Of a stretch of DNA of 64,000 bases, positions 38,646 through 63,199 are shown in pieces; the first letter of the stretch is position 1, and each line of letters begins with the position of its first letter. The DNA comes from Dehalococcoidia bacterium (lineage in GTDB: Bacteria > Chloroflexota > Dehalococcoidia > UBA2979): positions 416,001-480,000 of the forward strand of contig CAXXDN010000002.1 of assembly GCA_963667465.2 (NCBI GenBank). Reading direction: 5' to 3'. A program made the translations under genes and the position numbers. Under the pieces are notes generated by a model. That model ran no database searches. It saw only the letters and a list, made by a program, of their open reading frames with translations, and was not told where the DNA came from.

Positions 38646-41474
38646 ATGACGAGGCGGCTTGCGATTGGGCAGCGCGCGTGGCTGCTCGTGGCGGTCAGCG
38701 TCCTCGTCTCGCTCGCCGTCGTCGTCGGCCTCTGGCTGGGCTTCAGTGCGGACCCCACTGGCGCGACCCACACCACAGGGACAGTCGTCACCGTCACGGC
38801 GACGGCCGCTGATGGGTACGGTTTGTCGTCCTGGGGCGATAACGGCGCGGGCACACCCACTCCCTCGATGACTGCAACCGCGACGGCCACGCCGCCGCCG
38901 CCCGCGACCGTGACCCCGACCGACACCGCGCCGCCGACCGCCACCGCGACACCGGTGACCTACACGCTGACGTTCTCCGCCGCGACGGGAGGAAGCCTGA
39001 GCGCGGGCCCAGCCGGGGAGAGCCACGCTGCGGGGACAGTCGTCACCGTCACGGCGACCGCTGCGGACGGGTACCAGCTGTCGTCGTGGGGCGATGACTG
39101 CGCTGGCACGCCAGCGACCTCGGCGACGTGCTCGCTCACGATGGACGCGGACCGTATAGCCTCCGCGACGTTCGCGAAGAACAGCGCGCCCACCACGCTC
39201 CGCTACTCGACCTACGACACGACCGGGCAGGCGGCGACGGCCGGGAGCTACGCCTTCCTCACGGCGAACGGCGCTGGCAGCCAGCGGGAGGGCAGGGACG
39301 AGGGCGCGCGCCAGTCGGAAGGGGCCAACACCCCGGTCGCCATCACGACCCACGAGGGCCTGCGTACCGAGGCTGACACGCTGCGCATCCACGTCACCGA
39401 CGGCTCGGGCGTCGCGCGCGCGAGCTTCTACGGGACGGTGGAGGTCGGCGACACGTTCGAGTGGCGGGAGGCGAGCGATTGCTGGGTACGCTACCTCGTA
39501 ACCGCTGTCAAGCCGGGAACCTCGCCGCGCGAGTTTGTGATCTGGCCCTACTCGTACACGTACACCGGCTGTAGCGGCACGGTGGCCAGCGGTCGCAGTG
39601 CGCCGGGTGACACCGCTCAGGGCGGTGAGCGCTCGCCAGCGACCGCCACCGCGATGCGTGACTTCACATGGAAGCCCGCGTACCTGCGGACGGGCGACTT
39701 CAAGGTCCCGACCTGGCACGGCCCGTGGCTGATTGTCCCTACGAGTTGGACCGGACCGGTCCCTGTCGCCCGATCCCTGGCTCCGCCTGTCGCCCCACCT
39801 GCTATCACGTGGCCGCCGGATCCCCTCCCCGACCCGGACCTCGGACCCGGCTGGCGCGGGGGCGTGCACATGGGCTACGGGGACCTGGAGGGGCTGTACT
39901 CGCACAGCGACGGGGGCACCCTGAGCGCCTACATATGGCAACTCCAGAAGTGGCCGCTCGACGTCTACCGCATGGGGTTGCCCTTCAGCGAAGCCGCGCG
40001 GATCAACGAGTTCGTCATCATAGATGGGCGTCCGGCACACGTGTCTTACTCGCGCGTGAAACACGACGGATCGGAGGCTCAAGCGATAATCTTTGATCCG
40101 GCAACGGGGCTGGTCTACAGCGTGCGTGGCGGCCCGCTCGCCCGCCAGAACGACCCCGATGCGACGATCGAGATCGCGAAGAAGTTCATCCTGCCCGTGA
40201 CCCCGACCGACACCGCGCCGCCGACCGCGACCGTGACCCCGACGACCTACGCGCTGGCGCTCTCCGCCGCGACGGGTGGGAGCCTGAGTGCGGACCCCGC
40301 CGGGGAGAGCCACGCTGCGGGAACAGTCGTCACCGTCACGGCGACCGCCGCTGATGGGTACAAGTTCTCCTCGTGGGGTGATGACTGCGCTGGCACGCCT
40401 ACTACCTCGGCGACGTGCTCGCTCACGATGGACGCGGACCGCACAGCCTCAGCCATGTTCGCGAAGAACAGCGCACCCACCACGCTCCGCTACAGCACGT
40501 ACGACACGACCGGGCAGGCGGCGACCGCCGGGAGCTACGCCTTCCTCACGGCGAACGGCGCTGGCAGCCAGAGGGAGGGCGGGGACGAGGGCGCGCGCCA
40601 GTCGGAAGGGTCCACCACCCCGGTCGCCATCACGACCTACGAAGGGCTGCGCACCGAGGCCGACACCCTGCGCATCCACGTCACCGACGGTTCCGGAATC
40701 TCTCTCGCGAGCTTCTACGGCACGGTCGAGGTCGGCGACACGTTCGAGTGGCGGGAGGCGAGCGATTGCTGGGTGCGCTACCTCGTGACCGCGATCAATC
40801 TGGGGGCGTCCCCGCGGGACTTCGCAATCAAGCCCTACTCGTACACGTACACCGGCTGTAGCGGCACGGTGGCCAGCGGTCGCAGTGCGCCGGGTGACAC
40901 CGCTCAGGGCGGTGAGCGCTCGTCAGCGACCGCCACCGCGATGCGTGACTTCACATGGAAGCCCGCGTACCTGCGGACGGGCGACTTCAAGGTCCCCACA
41001 TGGCACGGCCCGTGGCTGATTGTCCCTACGAGTTGGACCGGACCGGTCCCTGTCGCCGCACCCGTCAACCCGCCTGCCATCACGTGGCCGCCGGCTCCCC
41101 TCCCCGACCCGGACCTCGGACCCGGCTGGCGCGGGGGCGTGCACTTGGGCTACGGGGAACTGGAAGGCTGGTACTCCCATGCTGACGGCGGGAGTCTTGA
41201 CGTCTACATGTACCAAGTGCATGACTGGCCAGACGACACCTATCGTACCGGCGCACCCTTGAATGAGGCTGCACGGGTCAACGAGTTCGTCATGATCGAC
41301 GGTCGTCCGGCCCACGTGTCCTACTCGCGTGTGAAGCATGACGGTTCGGATGCGAGCGTGGGCATCTACGACCCGGCAACCGGGGTGATGTACAGCGTGC
41401 GTGGCGGCCCGCTCGCCCGCCAGAACGACCCCAAGGCGACGATCGAGCTCGCGAAGAAGTTCATCCTGCCGTGA
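38646..41474 (+). CDS. Large surface protein with InlB B-repeat-like domains and an internal tandem duplication
   Basis: N-terminal TM/signal, Thr/Pro linker, YTLT..ATGG..GTVVTVTATAADGY..SSWGDDC repeats; two ~425-aa copies. Confidence 0.85.
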   Translation: MTRRLAIGQRAWLLVAVSVLVSLAVVVGLWLGFSADPTGATHTTGTVVTVTATAADGYGLSSWGDNGAGTPTPSMTATATATPPPPATVTPTDTAPPTATATPVTYTLTFSAATGGSLSAGPAGESHAAGTVVTVTATAADGYQLSSWGDDCAGTPATSATCSLTMDADRIASATFAKNSAPTTLRYSTYDTTGQAATAGSYAFLTANGAGSQREGRDEGARQSEGANTPVAITTHEGLRTEADTLRIHVTDGSGVARASFYGTVEVGDTFEWREASDCWVRYLVTAVKPGTSPREFVIWPYSYTYTGCSGTVASGRSAPGDTAQGGERSPATATAMRDFTWKPAYLRTGDFKVPTWHGPWLIVPTSWTGPVPVARSLAPPVAPPAITWPPDPLPDPDLGPGWRGGVHMGYGDLEGLYSHSDGGTLSAYIWQLQKWPLDVYRMGLPFSEAARINEFVIIDGRPAHVSYSRVKHDGSEAQAIIFDPATGLVYSVRGGPLARQNDPDATIEIAKKFILPVTPTDTAPPTATVTPTTYALALSAATGGSLSADPAGESHAAGTVVTVTATAADGYKFSSWGDDCAGTPTTSATCSLTMDADRTASAMFAKNSAPTTLRYSTYDTTGQAATAGSYAFLTANGAGSQREGGDEGARQSEGSTTPVAITTYEGLRTEADTLRIHVTDGSGISLASFYGTVEVGDTFEWREASDCWVRYLVTAINLGASPRDFAIKPYSYTYTGCSGTVASGRSAPGDTAQGGERSSATATAMRDFTWKPAYLRTGDFKVPTWHGPWLIVPTSWTGPVPVAAPVNPPAITWPPAPLPDPDLGPGWRGGVHLGYGELEGWYSHADGGSLDVYMYQVHDWPDDTYRTGAPLNEAARVNEFVMIDGRPAHVSYSRVKHDGSDASVGIYDPATGVMYSVRGGPLARQNDPKATIELAKKFILP
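38908..41474 (+). repeat. Intragenic tandem duplication, period about 1287 bp
   Basis: CCGTGACCCCGACCGACACCGCGCCGCCGACCGC at 38908 and 40195; both copies end AAGAAGTTCATCCTGCC. Confidence 0.95.
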
Positions 41475-52840: not shown

Positions 52841-53611
52841 GTGGCGGTTCCTCGGACCTGCTTCGCCACGACCGACGGACGCCTCGTGCCCACCGTCTCC
52901 GTCGAGGAGATGCGCGAGATCGACCGCATCGCTGTCGAGGAGACCGGTCCCGGGCTGCTGCAGATGATGGAGCACGCCGGGCTCGAGTTGGCCCGCGCGG
53001 CGCTCGCGATGCTTGGCGAGCACTGGCCGCACGCACGGGTCGTGGTCCTCGCCGGCAACGGCGGCAACGGCGGCGGCGGGCTCTGCGCCGCGCGCCTGCT
53101 GGCGAGCCGCGGCGTCGAGGTGCTCGCGGTGACGATCGCCCGCCCCTCGAGGGCGAGCGACGCCGTCGCGGCGCAGCTGCGGTTGCTGCACGAGTCACCG
53201 GCCCGCGTCATCGCCTGGTCCGACGCCTTCGACATCGGCGAGGCGGATCTGGTGGTCGACGCGGTCGTCGGCTACGGGCTGCGCGAGGCGCCGACCGGGC
53301 CGGTGATGGCGCTGGTCCGCGCGGCGCAGGCCGCCACCGCGCCCGTGCTCTCCCTCGATGTGCCCTCGGGCGTCGACGCGGACAGCGGCGAGACGCCCGG
53401 CTTCGCCGTGCGAGCGACGCGCACGCTCACGCTGGCGCTGCCGAAGCCCGGGCTCCGCCGCGAGCAGGCGGGCGACCTGTGGCTCGCTGACCTCGGCATC
53501 CCGCCCGGCGTCTTCGCGCGCGCCGGCCTCGCCTTCGACTCGCGGTTCGGGCCACACTTCGGCCCGGCCACGCAGATCCGGCTGCGCTACCCGGACGAGG
53601 TGGAGGGCTGA
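52841..53611 (+). CDS. nnrE: NAD(P)H-hydrate epimerase (stand-alone YjeF-N)
   Basis: MREID, MMEHAG, GNGGNGGGG, DAVVGYG, SLDVPSG, LADLGIP. Confidence 0.88.
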   Translation: MAVPRTCFATTDGRLVPTVSVEEMREIDRIAVEETGPGLLQMMEHAGLELARAALAMLGEHWPHARVVVLAGNGGNGGGGLCAARLLASRGVEVLAVTIARPSRASDAVAAQLRLLHESPARVIAWSDAFDIGEADLVVDAVVGYGLREAPTGPVMALVRAAQAATAPVLSLDVPSGVDADSGETPGFAVRATRTLTLALPKPGLRREQAGDLWLADLGIPPGVFARAGLAFDSRFGPHFGPATQIRLRYPDEVEG

Positions 53612-53628
53612 CGGTCCTCGGAGGCGGC

Positions 53629-53658
53629 TTGAGCGTGCCGGAGCGGCTTTGATAGGCT
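53629..53658 (+). promoter_or_regulatory. Probable sigma70-type promoter of tRNA-Glu(CTC)
   Basis: TTGAGC-18 nt-TAGGCT with extended TG, 14 nt before the tRNA. Confidence 0.5.
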
Positions 53659-53672
53659 GAAGGTCACTCGGC

Positions 53673-53749
53673 GGCGCATTCGTCTAGTGGCCCAGGACAT
53701 CGCCCTCTCAAGGCGAAGATCGCGGGTTCGAATCCCGCATGCGCCACCA
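53673..53749 (+). tRNA. tRNA-Glu (CTC)
   Basis: GGCGCATTCGTCTAGTGGCCCAGGACATCGCCCTCTCAAGGCGAAGATCGCGGGTTCGAATCCCGCATGCGCCACCA. Confidence 0.96.
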
Positions 53750-54931
53750 ACACGTACCGAACTCATAACTCGGCCTGAGAGAGCGACCTCGGCGGCGTTC
53801 GCGCCCCCGAGGGGACCGTCCGGCGGAGTCGGCATCGTGTAGTGGATGGTGGCCTGTCCGGGCCGCACCAGGATCGCCTGCACGAAGGAGCGCACGAACG
53901 CCCGCGTCTCCGTAATCTCGCTGGTGCGCAGGAACTCGCTCATCTCATCCGCTAAGGCCGCCACCGTCTCCGCGCTGTCCAGCAGCACCCGCCGCTCGGC
54001 CAGCATCGCCCGCGCCTCGTCCGCTGAGACCTCCAGCTGCCGCTGCCGCTCGCGGTGTTCCTGGATGCGCTCCGAGGCGTCGGCCAGATCGAGGTTGGTG
54101 TTCTCCACCACCTGCCAGACGCGGCCCAGCTTGCGCCGCACCTCCTCCAGCTCCGCCTCGATGCTCTCCAGCTTCTCGCGCTGCTCGCGCGCCACCCCGT
54201 CCATCTCCTCGTCGAGCAACCGCACGAGGTCGCAGATGTTGGACTCGGTGAGGATGTGGTCGCGCAGCTGCCCGATGATCGTCTCCTCGAAGCGCCGCGC
54301 GTTGAGCCTCGGCGTGACGCAGGCCTCCTTGCCGCGCTTGAGCAGCGACTGGCAGACGTAGTAGGCGTACTTGCCGCTCTTCGCCTCGGCGGCGGTGAGG
54401 TTGCGCCCGCAGCTCTCGCAGCGCACGAGCCCGCTCAGCAGGTAGGGGCTGGAGACGCGCCTCGGGTGTTCCACGTTCGGCGCGCGCGAGCGCAGCAACT
54501 CCTGCACGCGCTCGAACTCCTCCGCGCTCACGATTGCCGGCACGGCGCCCTCGACGCGCACGGGTGGGGCCTTGCCCTTGCTCCGCTTTCCCCAGACGAG
54601 CGTGCCCTTGTAGGCCTCGTTGCCGAGCATCCCATGCACGGTGTTCTTCAACCACCTGCCGCCGTTGCGGGTGGGGATGCCCTCGGCGTTGAGGGTGCGC
54701 ACGATGTCGAGCACGCTCTGGCCTGCGAGCGCCATCGTGAAGATGCGCCGCACGACGGCGTCGGAGGGTGGGTCGAGTTCCAGCTTCGGGCGCTCCTTGG
54801 CGCCGTCCTGCACGCGCACCTTCTTGTAGCCGTAGGGCGCGTAGGTCGAGACCCAGAAGCCGCGCGAGGCGGCTTCGCGCATCCCGCGCGTCACTTCGTC
54901 ACGACCGCAAGCAACCGAAAGGAACGGAACC

Positions 54932-56713
54932 ATGGACCTGGCTGAGTTCATCGATACGTACCGGGACGCCATTGCCCGGCGGGTAGTGGAGTCCTACCCG
55001 CCACGCTACCGGCCCTCCGAGCAGGGCCGCACGCTCCCCCACCTGCTGCGCACCCCGCTGGGCGCGCAGGCCGACGCCATCCGCGGCGCGGCGCTCTCGC
55101 TTGAGGCGCAGCGCGGCACGACCGTCGTCGGGGAGATGGGCACGGGCAAGACCTTCATCGCGGCTTCAGCCGCCTACATGGCGGGCTTCGAGCGCGTGCT
55201 CGTGCTTTGCCCGCCGCATCTCACCCGCAAGTGGAAGCGCGAGGTCGAGGAGACGGTGCCCGGCGCCCGCGCCGCCATCGTCGCCTCGATCACCGACCTC
55301 GAGCGGCTGCGTACCGTGACCGCCACCGGCCCGCTCTTCGCGATCATGTCGCGCGAGCGCGCCAAGCTCTCCTACCGCTGGCAGCCCGCCGTGGTGGAGC
55401 GCTGGGCCACCACCGCCCGTGGGCTCGTGCGCCACGAGGAGACGGGCGAGCCGTTCCAGATGCCGTGCTGCCCGGACTGCCACGCGCAGATCGTCGACAA
55501 GGACGGGGTGCCGCTGCTCGCTCGCGACCTCGCCCGCCGCAAGCGCCGGTGCGCGGAGTGCGGCGCGGCGCTCTGGCAGGCCGACCGCTCCGGACCGAAG
55601 CGTTACCCGCTCAGCGACTACGTGAAGCACCGCCTGCGGGGCTTCTTCGAGCTGCTGATCGGCGACGAAATCCACGAGTTCAAGGCGCGAGGTTCCGCCC
55701 AGGGCATCGCCGCCGGCGTCCTCGCCGATACCTGCGGCAAGTCCCTCTCCCTGAGCGGCACCTTGATGGGAGGGTATTCCTCCACGCTCTTCCACCTGCT
55801 CTACCGGTTCTCCCCGGAGATCCGGGGGGAGTTCGGGCGCTCCGAGGAGAGCCGCTGGATCGAGCGCTACGGCTTCGTCGAGCGCACCATCGGGCGCGAC
55901 GACCCCGACTCCTTCGAGGACGGGCGCACGAGCCGCCGCAAGCGCTACCGCAAGATCGTGCGGGAGCGGCCGGGGCTCGCCCCCGCCGCCCTCTTCCACC
56001 TGATCGGCAACAGCGTCTTCCTGCGGCTCGCCGACGTCGCCTCGGGCCTCCCGCCCTACGAGGAGCGCGTGCTGCTCTCCTCGATGGACGCGGAGCCAGG
56101 CGCTGACGGGCTCTCGCAGCGCTCGGGCTACGACGAGCTCTACGGGACGCTGCGGGCGGCGCTCGCCGACGCGCTCGCGAAGGGCTCGCGGCGGCTGCTC
56201 GCCACCTACCTGCAGACGCTGCTCGCCTACCCCGACGGCTGCACACAGGGCGAGACGGTCTTCGACCCGGAGACTGCGGACGTGCTCGTGCAGGTGCCGC
56301 CCCTCCCCGAGGACGGCCTCGCTGCCTACGGGGACGACGGCGACGACCTGCTGCTGGCCCTGGCGAGGAAGATCGTCGCGGGCGAGGAGGACGACGGCTC
56401 GGTCGAGTCGGTCTTCGAACAGGCCCGGCAGGTCGCGGCGGAGGCCGAGGCGCTGCTGGTCGACGAGGGCTGGCACGCGCCCGAGCCGGAGCCTGCGGTC
56501 GTAGAGGCCGAGGCTGTGACGGTCGCGAGCGAAGACCGCGAGGAAGCGCCCGCGACGCAGCGGACGCTGTTCTCGTGGGCGGAGTTCATGGCGGACACGC
56601 CGGATGAGCCGCTACCGCCCCGGGGTCGCCGCCACGACGAGGCCCCAACGCTCTCACTCTTCGAGTGGGCGCTGGAGCGGGAGCACGAGGGGGTGCTATC
56701 GGGAGCGGCCTGA
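54932..56713 (+). CDS. SNF2/SF2-like helicase, apparently internally deleted
   Basis: GEMGTGKT Walker A, CxxC..CxxC insert, DEIH, SGT motif III; no motifs IV-VI; AAAGGA RBS. Confidence 0.75.
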   Translation: MDLAEFIDTYRDAIARRVVESYPPRYRPSEQGRTLPHLLRTPLGAQADAIRGAALSLEAQRGTTVVGEMGTGKTFIAASAAYMAGFERVLVLCPPHLTRKWKREVEETVPGARAAIVASITDLERLRTVTATGPLFAIMSRERAKLSYRWQPAVVERWATTARGLVRHEETGEPFQMPCCPDCHAQIVDKDGVPLLARDLARRKRRCAECGAALWQADRSGPKRYPLSDYVKHRLRGFFELLIGDEIHEFKARGSAQGIAAGVLADTCGKSLSLSGTLMGGYSSTLFHLLYRFSPEIRGEFGRSEESRWIERYGFVERTIGRDDPDSFEDGRTSRRKRYRKIVRERPGLAPAALFHLIGNSVFLRLADVASGLPPYEERVLLSSMDAEPGADGLSQRSGYDELYGTLRAALADALAKGSRRLLATYLQTLLAYPDGCTQGETVFDPETADVLVQVPPLPEDGLAAYGDDGDDLLLALARKIVAGEEDDGSVESVFEQARQVAAEAEALLVDEGWHAPEPEPAVVEAEAVTVASEDREEAPATQRTLFSWAEFMADTPDEPLPPRGRRHDEAPTLSLFEWALEREHEGVLSGAA

Positions 56714-56724
56714 TAGGGCAATGC

Positions 56725-56841: not shown

Positions 56842-57531
56842 TCACCCGATTTGCAGGCCCAGTACGGCGAGTGCGCGAGTGACGTCCGGGTCGTCGGGCC
56901 GGACCGGTTCGGTACTGAATGAACGCAAAGGTGCGGGCGTGTCCGCCGCCGGTTCGAAGATGGCCCAGTTGGATGTCCCGTCGTCGAGGCGCGACTGGTA
57001 GCGGATGCCGGCGAGCGGCTCGACTCCTTCGGTGCGGCACTCGTAGACGAGCCGGGAGACCTCCTGCGTGAAGCGGCGGGGAGCGGTGAGGCGAATCCCG
57101 GCTGCATCAATGTCCGGGAGCCCGTGATGGATGCCCCTGTCCGCCAGGCGCGAGCGCAGCACCGACAGCGAGGCAGCCGCGCCGATGTCGGCGTAGGTTC
57201 CAACGAGTTCAGCCACGCCCATGAGCCGGTGCTCGAACCACTCGCACGGGACCGTTCCGGCTGCAACCGGCTCGTCATCGCCCTCGATTTCGCGGAGCCC
57301 TGCCACAACCTCGAGGTCGGGGCGAAACGGTGCGAGCGTCTCGATCAGCGCTCCGAAGCGCGCCGTGCTGGCGTACAGAACACGGTAGAACCCCAGCGGA
57401 TCGTCCCAGCGATTGCCGAAGGTGCCGTCGTGGCCAGCCTGGCTCCAGTCGGGCCACGCCCAGGGTTCGGGAGCGCGGGCGAGACGGAAGACCGGACCGG
57501 CGGGGGTCACGGTCTCGAGGCCGCAGCTCAT
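56842..57531 (-). CDS. RES-domain toxin
   Basis: VFRLAR, GNRWDDP..YRVLYAS, ALIETL, GIRYQSRL, NWAIFE. Confidence 0.85.
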   Translation of the reverse strand: MSCGLETVTPAGPVFRLARAPEPWAWPDWSQAGHDGTFGNRWDDPLGFYRVLYASTARFGALIETLAPFRPDLEVVAGLREIEGDDEPVAAGTVPCEWFEHRLMGVAELVGTYADIGAAASLSVLRSRLADRGIHHGLPDIDAAGIRLTAPRRFTQEVSRLVYECRTEGVEPLAGIRYQSRLDDGTSNWAIFEPAADTPAPLRSFSTEPVRPDDPDVTRALAVLGLQIG

Positions 57532-57920
57532 CCGCCGGACAGGAAGGCGCGCGCGGCGGCGATCACATCGGGGCCTACCTCGTCGAGGTCGCCTTCGCGG
57601 AGCAGTCGCAGTGGTGAGCGGTCGTCGAGCTGGGGGTTCAGCCCCTGGAACCAGGCCTGCGCGACGGCCGCCGAGTCGGCAGCGGCGATCGGAGCAGCGG
57701 CCTGCAGAGCGGTGCGAAGGCGTCGTTCCACATCGGCACTCGGTCTACGCGAGCCGTCCGCCCACTGGTGGACAGCGCGCGTCTCCTTGACCGATCCGAG
57801 GTACGCACAGAGCTTGGCGCCGAGGATTTCGCGCACATCGCGGACCACTTCCGGGAACGTGGAGCGGGTTGCGCGCACATGAGCTTCGTAGTCCGGACGG
57901 GCAACAGGGGTCGTCGTCAC
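57528..57920 (-). CDS. Xre/MbcA-like antitoxin of the RES toxin
   Basis: ILGAKLCAYL, AVHQWADG, AWFQGLNPQLDDRSP; ATGA coupling to the toxin; GAGGAGG RBS. Confidence 0.82.
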   Translation of the reverse strand: MTTTPVARPDYEAHVRATRSTFPEVVRDVREILGAKLCAYLGSVKETRAVHQWADGSRRPSADVERRLRTALQAAAPIAAADSAAVAQAWFQGLNPQLDDRSPLRLLREGDLDEVGPDVIAAARAFLSGG

Positions 57921-58323: not shown

Positions 58324-61300
58324 CTAGTCGTCGTCGGTGATGGTGCCGGTGGCGTAGACGAAGTAGCCGGGGATGGTTATGCCGCTCGTGGCGTACACGT
58401 ACACGTTGAGCGTCTCGTCCCCCTCGACGGTGCTGTCATCGATGACCGGCACGACGATGTCGAGGCTGGTAGCGCCAGCAGCGAGGGTGAACGCCTTGTA
58501 CTCGAGGGTGAAGTCCTGGCCCGCTGACGCGGTCCTGCCGAACCCGCCGTAGCGGAAGGTGATGGCCTGCGAATGCGCATGCGAGAGCGTCACGACGAAG
58601 CGCAGGCCTTCCGCTGCCTCGCTGGCGGAAGCGTCGCTCACGCTCACCGTCGGCGGACCGGTCGGCGGCGTTGGCGGCGGTGGGTCGTCGTCGTCGGCCA
58701 CGGCGACCGTCGCAGTGGCGTTCGAGGTCGAGACGGTGTAGCCGGTGCCCGTGCTGACCGTGGCGGTCACCGAGCCGTCGGGCTCGTCGGTGCTGTCGTT
58801 GGTGGTGGCGACGGTGAAGGTGGCGCTGCCCGTCGTCGAGATGGTGACGGTGCGCGAGCCCTCCTGGGCGAAGTCGCCGCTCTGGGACACCTCGACCCTC
58901 ACATCGAGGTCGGCCGCGGGGGCTGGAGTGGCGGTGACGGTGAACGTCGCGGCGCTGCCCTCGGTGATGCCGCTTCCTGCGGCGATGCTGATCTCCGGCA
59001 CGTCGTCGTCAGCCACGGCCACCGTCGCGGCGCCGTCCGTGGACGAGACGGTGTAGCCCGTCCCCGTGTCGATCGTCGCGGTCACCGAGCCGTCGGGCTC
59101 GTCGGCGCTGTCGTTGGTGGTGGCGACGGTGAAGGTGGCGCTGCCCGTCGTCGAGATGGTGACCGTGCGCGAGCCCGCCTGAGCGTAGTCGCCGCTCTGG
59201 GACACCTCGATCGTCACGTCGAGGTCGGCCGCGGGGGCTGGGTTGGCGGTGATGGTGAACTTCGCGGCGCCGCCCTCGGTGACGCCGCTGCCTGCGGCGA
59301 TGCTGATCTCCGGCGTGGGGGGCGGCGTCTGGGCTGGTTGGGTCTGGGCTGGCTGCGCCGACGCTGTCTCGAGGCACTCCAGCGCCTCGATCACCGGGTC
59401 CCACTGGCCGGTCGACCAGCCGTTCTGGCTACGACGCTCGTAGATCTCCTCGACCTCCGAGAGCGCGATGGCGTCCTGCTGGCCGGTCAGCGCGTTCTTC
59501 ACCCGCGTCCAGCGTTCGACGCCGGCCGTGGAGCCGGACGCCGCGATCCGCGCATCGACGTCGGCCAGCAGGGCGTTGGAGACGCAGGCCTGCTCCGCCT
59601 CCTGTGGCGAGGCCTGCGCGCTGGCGCTCAGCGCGTCGCTGCCCGGCCCGACGGCCGCCGTCGCGGTGGCGGCGAGGGCGGCGAGCTGCTGCGTGTCGCC
59701 GTTGTCGTCGACGTGCTCCGGCGTCACCGTGACTGTCAGCGTCATGGCCACCGTGGCGTCGTGCTGGATGGTCGCCGAGGTACCCGTCACGCCGGGCAGG
59801 TCGCCGGCGCTCGCGCTCAGCGAGTCGCTGCTCTCGGCCGACCAGGACACGTCGTAGGACGTGGCGTGCGGGACTGCGTCCCATGTGACCGAGACGCTGG
59901 CGTCGTCCACCGCCGCCACTTGCAGGTTGGCGACCTGCTCAGTGGGCGCCGGAGCAGCCTGCGCCGGGGAGTTCTGCGGGGGAAGCGTGTTTTCGGTCAG
60001 GTAGGAGCAGTTTCTGCCGTAATTGAAATCCGAGTTGAAAATATGGACGCGAACCGTGTCCACCGTGACCTGCCGCAGGCCGCCACCGCTGGCGGTGTGC
60101 GTGATGTCGGCGCAGGTATTGGCGATGGTGCGCGAGGCGGGCTTACGGACCACCCAGACCTTGCGCCAGCATTCCCAGGGCGTGTCCGCCGTGTTGTCCC
60201 AGGTCTCGCTTCTCCTCCCGCCCGTCACTGGATAGAAGCGACCGTTGCTGTCGTGGTATTCGAACTCACTCCCTGCGTGCCAGTTGCTGCATCCCGTCCC
60301 TGCACCGGGACTCCCATCGTTGAACGTCACCGTCAGCGTGCCCGGCAGGTTGGTCGCCCAGGTCTGGTAGGCCGGTCCATCGAGGGGGTCGGACGGCCCG
60401 GTCAGCGATAGGCCGATCAGGTTCCGCTTGTCCGAAGCCACCGTCGCCGTCACCGTCACCGTGCCGCCCGGCTCCGGGCGGTTCGACAGGCGCAGAACGT
60501 AGGTCAACTCGTAGCCGGGGTACATGTTCCGAGCAGGCGTGAGTCCGTTCTGGGACATCACCGTGTTCGGCCGCCGCAGGAAGGGCACGGACGCGTTCGC
60601 CCGATCGTAGTCCCACCACGCCTCAAGCTCGGGTGCGTCGTCTACCTCTACCCGTACATTGCCCAGGGCCTGGTTCGAGTAGCCGCCGCCGTTGGCCGTG
60701 TGCGTCACCCTCATATCTGGCCGGTTGCGATGCGTATTGGCCTCGTCCGCGCCGGTCACGGTCACCTGCTGCGGGTTCATGTAATTCGCTGACGTGAATG
60801 TGAGCGTCGCCGGGCTGAAGTTCGCTGCGAATCTGTTCCCACCGTCCCTGCCAAGTGTGACGATGGTGTCCCCGCCCGATGGCGCGGTCGTCAGCCGCAC
60901 GCAATAGGTCGCGACGCCTTCGTTCTCGAGAATGCGACCAAGGTTGGTGGCACTGAAGACGGTGTTCTGCGCCGCGCACGCCGCCGGCGCGGCCTCGTCG
61001 TCGTCGATGGACAGCGAGACCACCGAGGATGCAGACACGACCTCGGCGCCGCCGCCCGTCACCACCGTGCCCGAACCCGTGCCGGTGACCAGTGAGAGCG
61101 TTGCGGTGAGCGTCTCGTCGACGGCGTCCCCGTCGTCGAGGTTCGCGATCGGGGTCAGCGTCACCGTCGCCGTCTGCACCGTGTTGGAGTCGGAGCCGGT
61201 GAACGTCAGCAGCGGCGTCGCGGACGTCTGATTGCTCAGCGCGACGCCGGTGCCCGTTGCGGTGATCGCGAAGTCCGGCGTCGCGTGACCGGGCAGCCGC

Positions 61301-62147
61301 GCGCCGGTGCTGGTGGCAAGCGTGATCCTCGCCACCAGCGACTCGCCGGCGATCAGGCCACGGCCCAGCGTCACCGTCAGCACCGCGGTGTTGGACGTGT
61401 CGCCCTCGCCCAGCTCCATGTCCGTCGCTGCGAGCGACACACCGGTCGCCTCATCGTCTGTGATCCGCACCTTCTCCGAGCCGGTGGTGCCCGACACCGT
61501 GTACGCGTCCGTGCTGCTGCAACCCGCCGTGCTGGAGACGACGGCCGTCACGGTGATGACGCTGTCGAGATCGTCCGCATTCGTGTCCGTCCAGGCCACA
61601 TCGATCGACCCCGACTGCACGCCCGCAAGGAAGCTCACCGTCTTGATGCCTTCGGCGGCCGCGGCGACCCGGTCGGCGTCGCCCGACTCAGCCACGTTGA
61701 CGCAGACGGTCAGATTCGCCGCCGGCTGCGCGTCCAGCGACAAGGGGAAGGAGACCGTTTCGTCCACCTCGGGCTTCTCGACCTCGCCGTCGGCATTGCG
61801 GTTCTCGCCCTCACCCACCATCAGCCGCACCGACACCTCGGGGGGCGTCTGCGCCTGTGCCTCCTCGGCGGGGTACGCCAGGAGCAGCGCCAGGCTGAGC
61901 AACGCCAGCAGCAGGCCGCAGGCCACGGCGCCGGATCGGCCGCCGGCGGAACCAGGCTCAGGTCGGGAGGCGGAGCGCCGGAGTCGAGCCGGCCTCAGTC
62001 GCTTCGGAGACTCAGCACGTATGTGCGGGGGGGGGGGGGTACGGCGAGCGTCGACGCCGTCGACACGCGACGGCTGGCAGCGGCGAGGGCGGCGCGGACC
62101 GCAGGCAGCCGGCGCAGCGCACTTCGCCCGTCGCTCAACCTGCGCAT
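58324..62147 (-). CDS. Large secreted Calx-beta/Ig/FN3-like surface protein; likely start ATG 62147 is out of frame at a C13 tract
   Basis: Signal peptide LLLALLSLALLLAYPAEEAQA-Q, Calx-beta-like repeats ending DDD, FN3-like VTWDAVPHATSYDVSW. Confidence 0.8.
58684..59313 (-). repeat. Two tandem 315-bp (105-aa) Calx-beta-like repeats
   Basis: PEISIAAGSG(V/I)TEG...VAVADDD twice, near identical. Confidence 0.92.
62027..62039. repeat. G13/C13 homopolymer tract
   Basis: 13 consecutive G on the + strand in the adhesin leader. Confidence 0.95.
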
Positions 62148-62469
62148 CGTGCGGTCCTCCAACCGGCCAGCACCCGGCGCCCGTGGCAGCCGGGGCCAGC
62201 GCCGGCTCGGTTGCCGCGCAGCCTAGGTCGCCCCGGACAGGAACGCAAGGCTGGGGTGGCTCGTGTCGATCGTCGCCGGGTGCCGCGCCTTGCGAGGGGC
62301 TGCCGCTGCGCGCAGCCGTCAGCGGCCGGAGGTGCCGGAGCGGTGACGGTGAACGTCGCGGCGCAGTCCTCGGTGACGCCCGCGCCGGCGACACCGTAGA
62401 GTCCACGCGGCTAGACTGACACGGGTCGTGGCGGGCCGATCTGTAGTGTCGGCGTGCGCCGCGACCGAT

Positions 62470-62627
62470 ACATCCTTCACGCCTCCACAGACCCCGACCT
62501 GCTAACCCGCTTGCGAGAGATGCTCGACAGCTCCGCCCGGGCGGACAACGCCGTCGGCTATTTCTTCATGCCCGGCTTCGGCGCGATCAGTACCGCGCTC
62601 TCCCGGCTCGACAAGGTCCGCATCCTT
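62470..62627 (+). repeat. Helicase/PLD gene-start repeat, copy 1
   Basis: ILHASTDPDLLTRLREMLDSSARADNAVGYFFMPGFGAIS..LSRLDKVRIL. Confidence 0.85.
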
Positions 62628-62786
62628 GATTATGGCGGTCACCCGCCACAGAAGCCCCTTCACCGTCATGGGCTAGATCCGTAACGTGGATGCCTTTGCA
62701 GATCATGCGGGGCAGAGCTTCTTGTGAGAGCAACATGCGGCTGTGCGCCTGCTCAGGTTGGCTCGCCTCGACCCAGGGGACGCCTG

Positions 62787-62898
62787 CACATCCACGCCTC
62801 GACCGCTGGGACCTGCTCCCGACTGCGGGGAGATGCTGGACAGCTCTGTGTCGACACCGACAGAGCCATCAGGTACTTCTTCATGCCCGGCTTCGGCG
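62787..62898 (+). repeat. Helicase/PLD gene-start repeat, copy 2 (degenerate)
   Basis: TCCACGCCTC..GACCTG..GAGATGCTGGACAGCTC..TACTTCTTCATGCCCGGCTTCGGCG with indels. Confidence 0.8.
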
Positions 62899-62944
62899 AC
62901 GACGCGGTACGATAGCGAGCGCGCATACCGCCGGAGGGCCAGCC

Positions 62945-63199
62945 ATGACTACAACCGTCAGAGCCACCTACGCCGACGGCGTGCTCACGCCTCTGGAACC
63001 CCTCGACATCGAGGAGGGCAGGGAGGTAACGCTCTCAATCGAGGACGCAGCGTCGCCGAAACGAGGGCTGGCCGGCATCGTCGAGACAGTCGAGGAGCTT
63101 CACAGGACCATCCCCCCGGAGGCGTGGGACGCCCTGCCAGCTGATGGCGCGAAGAACTACAAGCACTATCTGTACGGCCACCCGAAGGAAGACGCCTGA
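62945..63199 (+). CDS. Antitoxin, DUF104/AF2212-like
   Basis: TVRATYADGVLTPLEPLDIEEGREV, DGAKNYKHYLYGHPK; GGAGG RBS. Confidence 0.85.
   Translation: MTTTVRATYADGVLTPLEPLDIEEGREVTLSIEDAASPKRGLAGIVETVEELHRTIPPEAWDALPADGAKNYKHYLYGHPKEDA

Follow-up and report, generated by a model that had tools for sequence, protein, structure and literature searches.

A poly-C tract as a candidate frame switch ahead of a giant Calx-beta surface-protein gene in a Dehalococcoidia contig

Repeat-driven phase variation is textbook biology for a handful of host-adapted pathogens, and to our knowledge it is hardly documented beyond them. In the opa genes of Neisseria, pentamer repeats lie in the signal-peptide coding region, with many paralogues per genome and most of them OFF. 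Repeats that act from the promoter or the 5′ untranslated region (UTR) are found at Bordetella fim (poly-C) and at Moraxella uspA1 (poly-G) and uspA2 (AGAT). Here we describe a 64-kb stretch of DNA from a Dehalococcoidia bacterium (contig CAXXDN010000002.1, positions 416,001 to 480,000; hereafter the window), in which an uninterrupted run of 13 C residues (C13) precedes a minus-strand gene for a giant, putatively secreted Calx-beta protein. The best-supported reading, in which we place modest confidence, is that C13 is a hypermutable repeat in a 5′ coding leader and switches the frame of this protein.

The C13 tract (62027..62039, minus strand; G13 on the plus strand) exceeds what chance would produce. 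No homopolymer in the window is longer: five runs reach at least 7, with 8 as the runner-up, and a C13 was absent from all of 100 dinucleotide-preserving shuffles. In the available part of a deep re-sequencing study of N. meningitidis, homopolymers of at least 8 were mostly variable (PMC5084427); by that criterion, C13, the proposed slippage site, exceeds the slippage length of ~8. Upstream of the tract on the same strand, a Shine-Dalgarno (S-D) sequence, GGAGG (62156..62160), is separated by 8 nt from an ATG (62145..62147; hereafter ATG 62147), the most likely translation start, which lies 108 nt (36 codons) ahead of the tract. As assembled, this ATG opens a leader open reading frame (ORF) of 50 codons (61995..62147, minus strand) in the OFF frame, which reads the tract as PPPP and ends at a TGA (61997-61995). 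A much longer frame, 58324..62406 (minus strand), runs through the tract without a stop and has only three canonical starts, GTG 62406 and GTG 62394 upstream of the tract and GTG 61926 downstream of it. As worked out from the sequence, ATG 62147 meets the long frame with C14 or C11, giving ~1274 codons; more generally, the ON state requires that 108 nt, the tract length and one further base sum to a multiple of three. The full product from ATG 62147 in the ON frame would be a Calx-beta protein of ~1270 aa. A first, sequence-only reading of the window had described the S-D sequence, ATG, tract, stop and 50-aa peptide, and had proposed that a tract of C14 or C11 would put this ATG in the signal-peptide frame; both descriptions hold.

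If the tract acts as a frame switch, ribosomes would start at ATG 62147, translate 36 codons and cross the tract as a run of prolines, which a C run encodes whatever the frame. With C11, C14 or C17 they would continue through a ~37-codon Arg/Ser/Pro-rich leader and the signal peptide into the ~1270-aa protein. With C13, one base short, they would stop at 61995 and no exported protein would be made from ATG 62147, and C12 or C15 would lead to a stop at an earlier TGA. Slipped-strand mispairing at replication would lengthen or shorten the tract by one, making the ON and OFF states heritable and reversible. Slippage presumably occurs at a useful rate, and C13 is presumably the true majority tract length.

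The gene behind the tract is intact. Between tract and signal peptide lies a conserved leader box, GGCGCTCCGCCTCCCGACCTGA (61958..61979, minus strand), which encodes RSASRPE in the signal-peptide frame, and the leader peptide upstream of GTG 61926 includes HIRAESPKRLRPARLRR. GTG 61926 (61924..61926, minus strand), an alternative start, stands immediately ahead of the hydrophobic core. The signal-peptide-like segment MACGLLLALLSLALLLAYPAEEAQA (61852..61926, minus strand) was identified by eye, as was the putative cleavage site between GLLLALLSLALLLAYPAEEAQA and Q; strong periodicity of GC content at third codon positions (GC3) starts with this segment. The mature giant surface protein (58324..61851, minus strand) belongs to an ORF of ~1200 codons without a stop, and a Calx-beta domain (PF03160) is encoded at 58384..58644 on the minus strand; its match, at residues 1255-1341 of P0001, scores 30 bits where the cut-off is 27 (E 5.9e-07). 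Among 8000 candidates scored, 268 were homologues at E<=0.001, many of them with PF03160, and the protein is a putative adhesin. Over 407 codons of the mature region, the ratio of nonsynonymous to synonymous substitution rates (dN/dS) against the closest DNA relative was 0.45, indicating that this is a maintained gene under purifying selection and not a decaying pseudogene.

That closest relative (L004) is a metagenome-assembled genome (MAG) titled Tepidiformaceae (Chloroflexota). The neighbouring genes (54916-56716) are 81-89% identical between the two, so the window organism is related to that of L004. From ~62255 to the signal peptide, the leader is 94% identical, and between the S-D sequence and the signal peptide there is a single indel, which lies at the tract: L004 has C14 and an extra A, leaving its ATG OFF in the opposite wrong frame from that of the window. 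The S-D sequence of ATG 62147 is kept in L004 and in two further family loci, L028 and L038; the distance from ATG to tract is 108 nt in L004, as in the window, and 109-110 nt in L028 and L038. A database protein, P0004, which is 77% identical to the window's protein and 74% identical to that of L004, represents the ON state. P0004 begins MRRLSDGRSTLRRLPAVRAALAAASRRVSSPSTLAVPPPPQHTRSEPPKRLRPARP...GLLLALLSL and reads MRRLSDGRSTLRRL...LAVPPPPQHTRSEPPKRL...GLLLALLSL, that is, the same Met start, then PPPP, then the signal peptide in frame. The window, L004 and P0004 thus represent three frame states that differ at the tract alone.

The sequence-only reading had held that a fixed C14 or C11 in accurate reads would reduce C13 to an assembly error. 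Long homopolymers are the classic weak spot of long-read consensus, a single extra C would suffice, and the gene is otherwise intact; C13 could be a consensus error for C14, with the gene simply ON from ATG 62147. We consider this improbable, since independently assembled relatives differ by more than one base and in both directions (C14 plus A in L004; C14 in L002 and C20 in L003), repeats of 5 and 8 nt that are not error-prone behave alike (see below), and the 4-kb ORF contains no further homopolymer frameshift. Such an error, if real, would alter the present state of the tract and not its nature.

The tract belongs to a family-wide pattern. A genome scan yielded 67 loci, the source MAGs being titled as members of many phyla and classes; we examined 51 sources (L001-L050 and the window), 45 of which include the 5′ end of the gene. 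A perfect 5′ repeat was present in 35 of these 45 by automatic criteria, and inspection added L006, L008, L033, L046 and L049. The repeats are poly-C tracts of C10-C21, GCCGA/AGCCG in 9-39 copies, ATCGCCGG in 7-46 copies, ACCGGCTT and TCAGCCGG; the units are thus 1, 5 or 8 nt long, and none is divisible by three. Homopolymers of at least 10 numbered 21 in 1.37 Mb (the 67 loci and 12 kb of the window), 18 of them C on the sense strand and three G. Repeat length differs between close relatives: L002 has C14 and L003 has C20 with 100% identical flanks, L025 and L032 are one 8-nt unit apart with L032 alone in frame, and, at near-identical flanks, the gap is 16 units between L014 and L027 and 11 between L017 and L029.

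The leaders of these genes look as if translation enters them ahead of the repeat. A strong S-D sequence and ATG precede the repeat by 71-195 nt in 23 loci, and the ORF from this ATG reaches it; the encoded N-termini share the loose motif xxxx[NSK][EDH][GA]RxxxRxL (for example, MRRLSDGRSALRRL, MSSGYEGRRLARGL and MIIFNEGRHAIRAL). The RSASRPE box is in frame with the long ORF in 18 of the 18 leaders that carry it; five further fuzzy matches to the box lay elsewhere and were set aside. Indels between repeat and signal peptide measure 3, 3, 30 and 78 nt in a multi-locus alignment, with a further one of ~84 nt in L023 and two more, of 15 and 75 nt, separating L028 from L038, so that all seven are multiples of three. 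In the same multi-locus alignment, site variability in the leader is 0.53/0.39/0.63 at the three codon positions, a ranking also seen in the signal peptide. Lastly, in 23 of 37 loci the signal-peptide frame offers no ATG, GTG or TTG between the repeat and the hydrophobic core. Taken together, the S-D sequence and ATG, the frame of the box, the indels, the codon-position variability and the scarcity of internal starts indicate that the leader is entered by translation from upstream of the repeat. Public annotation starts most loci downstream of the signal peptide. Because pipelines place most starts past the signal peptide, the family is systematically mis-annotated.

The family occurs at 40-80% identity in MAGs titled Chloroflexota, Acidobacteriota, Actinomycetota, Thermodesulfobacteriota, Nitrospira, Binatia, Alpha- and Gammaproteobacteria and also Acidimicrobiia, often with several family copies per genome. 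Many titles are Candidatus names from Porifera or Spongia, a habitat suggested by the titles only. This distribution suggests horizontal spread within one community type. A wider reading, which we hold tentatively as possible though short of probable, is that each copy of this horizontally shared, cross-phylum Calx-beta family is gated by a hypermutable 5′ repeat behind a conserved S-D sequence and ATG, the gating module being poly-C, a 5-mer or one of three 8-mers, and that most copies are OFF at a given moment.

For the start codon at the window's own locus, predicted duplex strength with the anti-Shine-Dalgarno sequence favours ATG 62147. Its free energy (dG) of -9.3 kcal/mol lies in the top 3.4% of the window's ATG and GTG sites (n=3293), and its ribosome-binding site is the only strong one close to the gene; GTG 61926 (dG -5.0) is at the 30th percentile, and GTG 62394 and GTG 62406 have dG values of -3.0 and -1.9. 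The starts of the longest ORF, GTG 62406 and GTG 62394, were rejected: they are without an S-D sequence, the region 61980-62400 (~78% GC) is without clear codon periodicity, and the region upstream of ~62255 is unconserved with L004. The sequence-only reading had likewise regarded GTG 62406 as a poor start, and the weak duplex bears this out. We conclude that ATG 62147 is most likely the working start, as judged from the sequence.

Several observations weigh against this start, and against the frame switch that depends on it. P0002, the database copy of the window's protein (1200 aa), begins at GTG 61926. The codon periodicity typical of the genome (70% GC; GC3 ~0.9, and ~0.4 at second positions) begins only at ~61950-61980. 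Codon by codon against L004, the window has 3 synonymous and 9 nonsynonymous differences between ATG and tract and 0 and 7, respectively, between tract and GTG 61926, compared with 3 and 0 between GTG 61926 and the cleavage site. Leaders of Thermodesulfobacteriota paralogues show the same excess, with nonsynonymous to synonymous differences of 14:2, 15:0 and 3:2. Given this nonsynonymous excess in the leader and none in the signal peptide, constraint at the protein level is visible only from GTG 61926; the leader is not conserved as a protein, yet it is kept open and in frame. The ON product from ATG 62147 would also carry an unusually long extension, ~75 aa, ahead of its signal peptide. The length of C13 rests on one consensus assembly, P0004 is the one ON protein with this leader in the searched sets, and its tract, inferred as C13 plus A from the L004 flank, is that of a gene known from its protein only. 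Across the family, just two of the 23 upstream ATGs, those of L008 and L032, are in the signal-peptide frame, below the one third expected, although the loci are not independent; among the 21 out of frame, L002 was worked out separately from the sequence. OFF may be the majority state in the family. In four loci the repeat lies outside the coding sequence, in the 5′ UTR or promoter: in L009, C10 sits 9 nt ahead of a signal peptide that begins with ATG; a 5-mer array abuts the ATG in L036 and L040; and in L030, stops intervene between C21 and the ORF. Finally, loci with 5-mer and 8-mer repeats have TTGACA-like and TATAAT-like hexamers immediately ahead of the repeat, which a start at the upstream ATG leaves unexplained; no such element is present in the window.

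Many of these points could be accommodated if translation began at GTG 61926 and the tract lay in a 5′ untranslated leader, within an upstream ORF (62147-61995), with no gating of the frame. Tract length would then act through mRNA level, the termination point of the upstream ORF or polyproline stalling, or not at all. The database start, the onset of purifying selection and of GC3 periodicity, and the position of the repeat ahead of the start codon in L009, L036 and L040 all fit this alternative, as do the retention of GTG at this codon in the window, L004, L021, L028 and L038 and the sequence that follows it (M-A-C/R-G-LLL...), which resembles a short signal peptide. Set against these are the weak S-D sequence, the homologous codon, which elsewhere is GTG, CTG or CCG and in most family members CTG or CCG, the upstream leader that keeps its frame through seven indels of 3n, and the reading of P0004, which is open from the upstream ATG. 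Nor did we find a regulatory element through which an untranslated tract might act. The sole match in an Rfam scan was IRES_Bip, which lies outside the tract (61819-61871) and scores 8.3 bits where the gathering score is 40 (E 4.9); the fold of the leader RNA did not surpass that of shuffled sequences (z +1.0), of which 166 in 200 folded equally well or better; and no sigma-70 consensus was present in 61700-62900, although promoter types of the host lineage may differ. A structured RNA or riboswitch was dropped as a candidate, the Rfam match being at chance level and the fold no better than that of shuffles. We regard a start at GTG 61926 as a serious but unlikely alternative. Note that both this alternative and a consensus error would keep the tract as a hypermutable element ahead of a surface-protein gene.

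The scarcity of ON states bears on two further explanations. One is that the frame is bypassed at expression, with RNA polymerase slipping on the C run or ribosomes shifting frame on CCC, so that a fixed fraction of product is made. Long A/T homopolymers are an established site of such slippage. The ON state is rarer than chance (2/23), four Thermodesulfobacteriota paralogues are all C10, and the two of them in which the ORF from the upstream ATG reaches the tract, L022 and L039, are both out of frame. However, the fold analysis of the leader revealed no stimulatory structure, a spread from C10 to C21 would be intolerable for a tuned recoding site, and 5-mer and 8-mer repeats cannot act in this way; we consider a bypass very unlikely.

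The other explanation is that the gene is a fixed silent copy, either a frameshift pseudogene or an archival cassette for recombination. In addition to the 21 of 23 family loci out of frame, there are signs of recombination among copies. An N-terminal module of ~400 aa between the signal peptide and PEVSVRLMVGEGENR is present in L004 and P0004 and missing from the window gene (window 61840-61852 compared with L004 8020-9000), which indicates a domain-level rearrangement between orthologues. Upstream of the leader, a 68-nt fragment of a family repeat domain (62323..62390, minus strand), in the third frame (VTEDCAATFTVTAPAPPAADG), is 78-92% identical to internal repeats of L004, L009, L010, L012, L028 and L038 and looks like a recombination scar; the sequence-only reading had called this region repeat debris, and rightly so. 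A silent copy is nonetheless difficult to reconcile with a ~1200-codon ORF that lacks stops and has a dN/dS of 0.45, or with an S-D sequence, ATG and leader that are 94% conserved with L004, above the ~87-89% of the flanking genes. Of all the explanations considered, we find this one the least credible.

With frame switching by slippage at C13 as our preferred reading, the earlier suggestion of a phase-variable adhesin stands in part. The tract behind a strong S-D sequence and ATG, the ON and OFF relatives, the intact gene and the family repeats speak for it, and a possible start at GTG 61926 still speaks against it.

Some features of the leaders are recorded here in their own right. A candidate promoter, TTGCGT-N17-TAGGCT (62220..62248, minus strand), was picked out by eye with low confidence and missed by the consensus scan; it is identical in L004 and sits at the upstream limit of the sequence block that the window and L004 conserve. 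Eight of the 12 substitutions between the window (62040-62147) and L004 fall on position 1 of the ATG frame, which may be chance; no ORF on either strand accounts for this bias. An antisense ORF was rejected as the source of the skewed phases of substitution in the leaders: ORF 8412-8711 of L022 runs in the wrong phase, and the required frame contains no such ORF in the window. We also rejected a gene on the plus strand beneath the tract, as ORFs 61285-62226 and 61307-62419, antisense to the gene, are without the genome's GC3 pattern. With residues 1-95 of P0004 as query, we found nothing beyond P0004 itself, and no small ORFs matched the 50-aa leader peptide; in a representative library that peptide had two matches with E up to 0.001 (one in 31 stretches), which were set aside unchecked as low-complexity.

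The hexamer pairs occur in L013 (8095-8243), L017, L019, L025, L036, L044, L046 and others, inside the ORF from the upstream S-D sequence and ATG; the two hexamers stand 15-27 nt apart, in most cases 20 or 23, and the spacer often includes a palindrome such as CTGAGGGGAcTCCCCTCAG. In L013, L017, L026, L029 and others, a conserved ORF of 12-13 codons, (A/G/T)TG GTG GCG CCG CCT AAG ... GCC TGA, lies 15-55 nt after the 8-mer repeat, one base off the signal-peptide frame. Its stop and a TAA or TAG in the third frame are both conserved, so that the two wrong frames end 27-54 nt past the repeat. A +1 ribosomal frameshift from this short ORF was set aside, since no slippery site was apparent by eye.

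Directly downstream of the surface-protein gene, a serine recombinase gene (53587-54972, minus strand) adjoins a ResIII-type helicase gene (54932-56713, plus strand); the helicase region is syntenic with L004, and this neighbourhood may represent a mobile or island context. Beside them, an ORF for a RES-domain toxin (56842-57531, minus strand) overlaps one for an Xre/MbcA/ParS-like antitoxin (57528-57920, minus strand), whose match is under the Pfam cut-off. The divergent upstream neighbour (62690-63199, plus strand) encodes an AF2212-like domain (PF01954), and ahead of it an ORF at 62454-62684 (plus strand) has coding-like GC3 and no Pfam match. Elsewhere in the window, a second large putative surface protein of 942 aa (38646-41474, plus strand) has divergent InlB B-repeat domains (PF18998).

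If the frame-switch reading is true, a giant surface protein and a mutational ON/OFF device would be common to uncultured symbionts from many phyla, which would imply strong fluctuating selection on the surface, for example by host recognition, phagocytosis or phage. If the cross-phylum reading is also true, symbionts would possess a stochastic, reversible surface repertoire like that of mucosal pathogens. Calx-beta domains also form the sponge's own aggregation factor, according to the portion of that literature available; our Calx-beta literature search returned only papers on the host aggregation factor and on general symbiont genomics. A search of the literature on phase variation, contingency loci, simple sequence repeats and homopolymeric tracts found no report for sponge symbionts, MAGs or Chloroflexota, in agreement with the sequence-only reading, which knew of none in this lineage; for sponge-associated bacteria and Chloroflexota alike, our search came up empty. 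The frame-switch claim is directly testable from existing read data.

The closest counterparts are the G/C-tract contingency genes of Neisseria, Haemophilus, Campylobacter and Helicobacter. As proposed for the window's locus, a long run of G or C lies in the 5′ coding part, where a change of ±1 shifts the frame, and, in the part of the sources available, tract length varies among relatives with conserved flanks and both ON and OFF alleles. The differences are that the host here is a high-GC, Tepidiformaceae-like member of Chloroflexota, that the system is known here from sequence alone, and that the tract would sit within a long stretch preceding the signal peptide, 36 codons past the start and ~37 before the hydrophobic core. 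With opa, for which the available part of PMC5084427 mentions a 5′-CTTCT-3′ repeat at an opacity protein, the family shares multiple copies of a surface-protein gene, a non-3n 5′ repeat at each copy and a majority of copies out of frame in each genome. Unlike in opa, the repeat type here varies by lineage at one position (C, GCCGA, ATCGCCGG, ACCGGCTT or TCAGCCGG), the family extends over MAGs titled as many phyla, and the proteins are unrelated to Opa. Systems of the fim, uspA1 and uspA2 type, in which a C/G run or short repeat upstream tunes an adhesin gene, fit L009, L030, L036 and L040, whereas the window's tract is without a flanking promoter consensus and has a strong S-D sequence and ATG upstream of it. 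Reversible switching by homopolymer-tract indels in a high-GC bacterium is also described for Mycobacterium tuberculosis (PMC11898584); as far as the available part of that report goes, it concerns another phylum, other genes and short tracts, without a family-wide 5′ leader design. We conclude that the design works like that of classical contingency loci, both the G/C 5′ coding tracts and the opa-type families, and that the mechanism is not new. What looks new is the host range, together with the way in which interchangeable repeat modules occupy a single position of the leader in different phyla.

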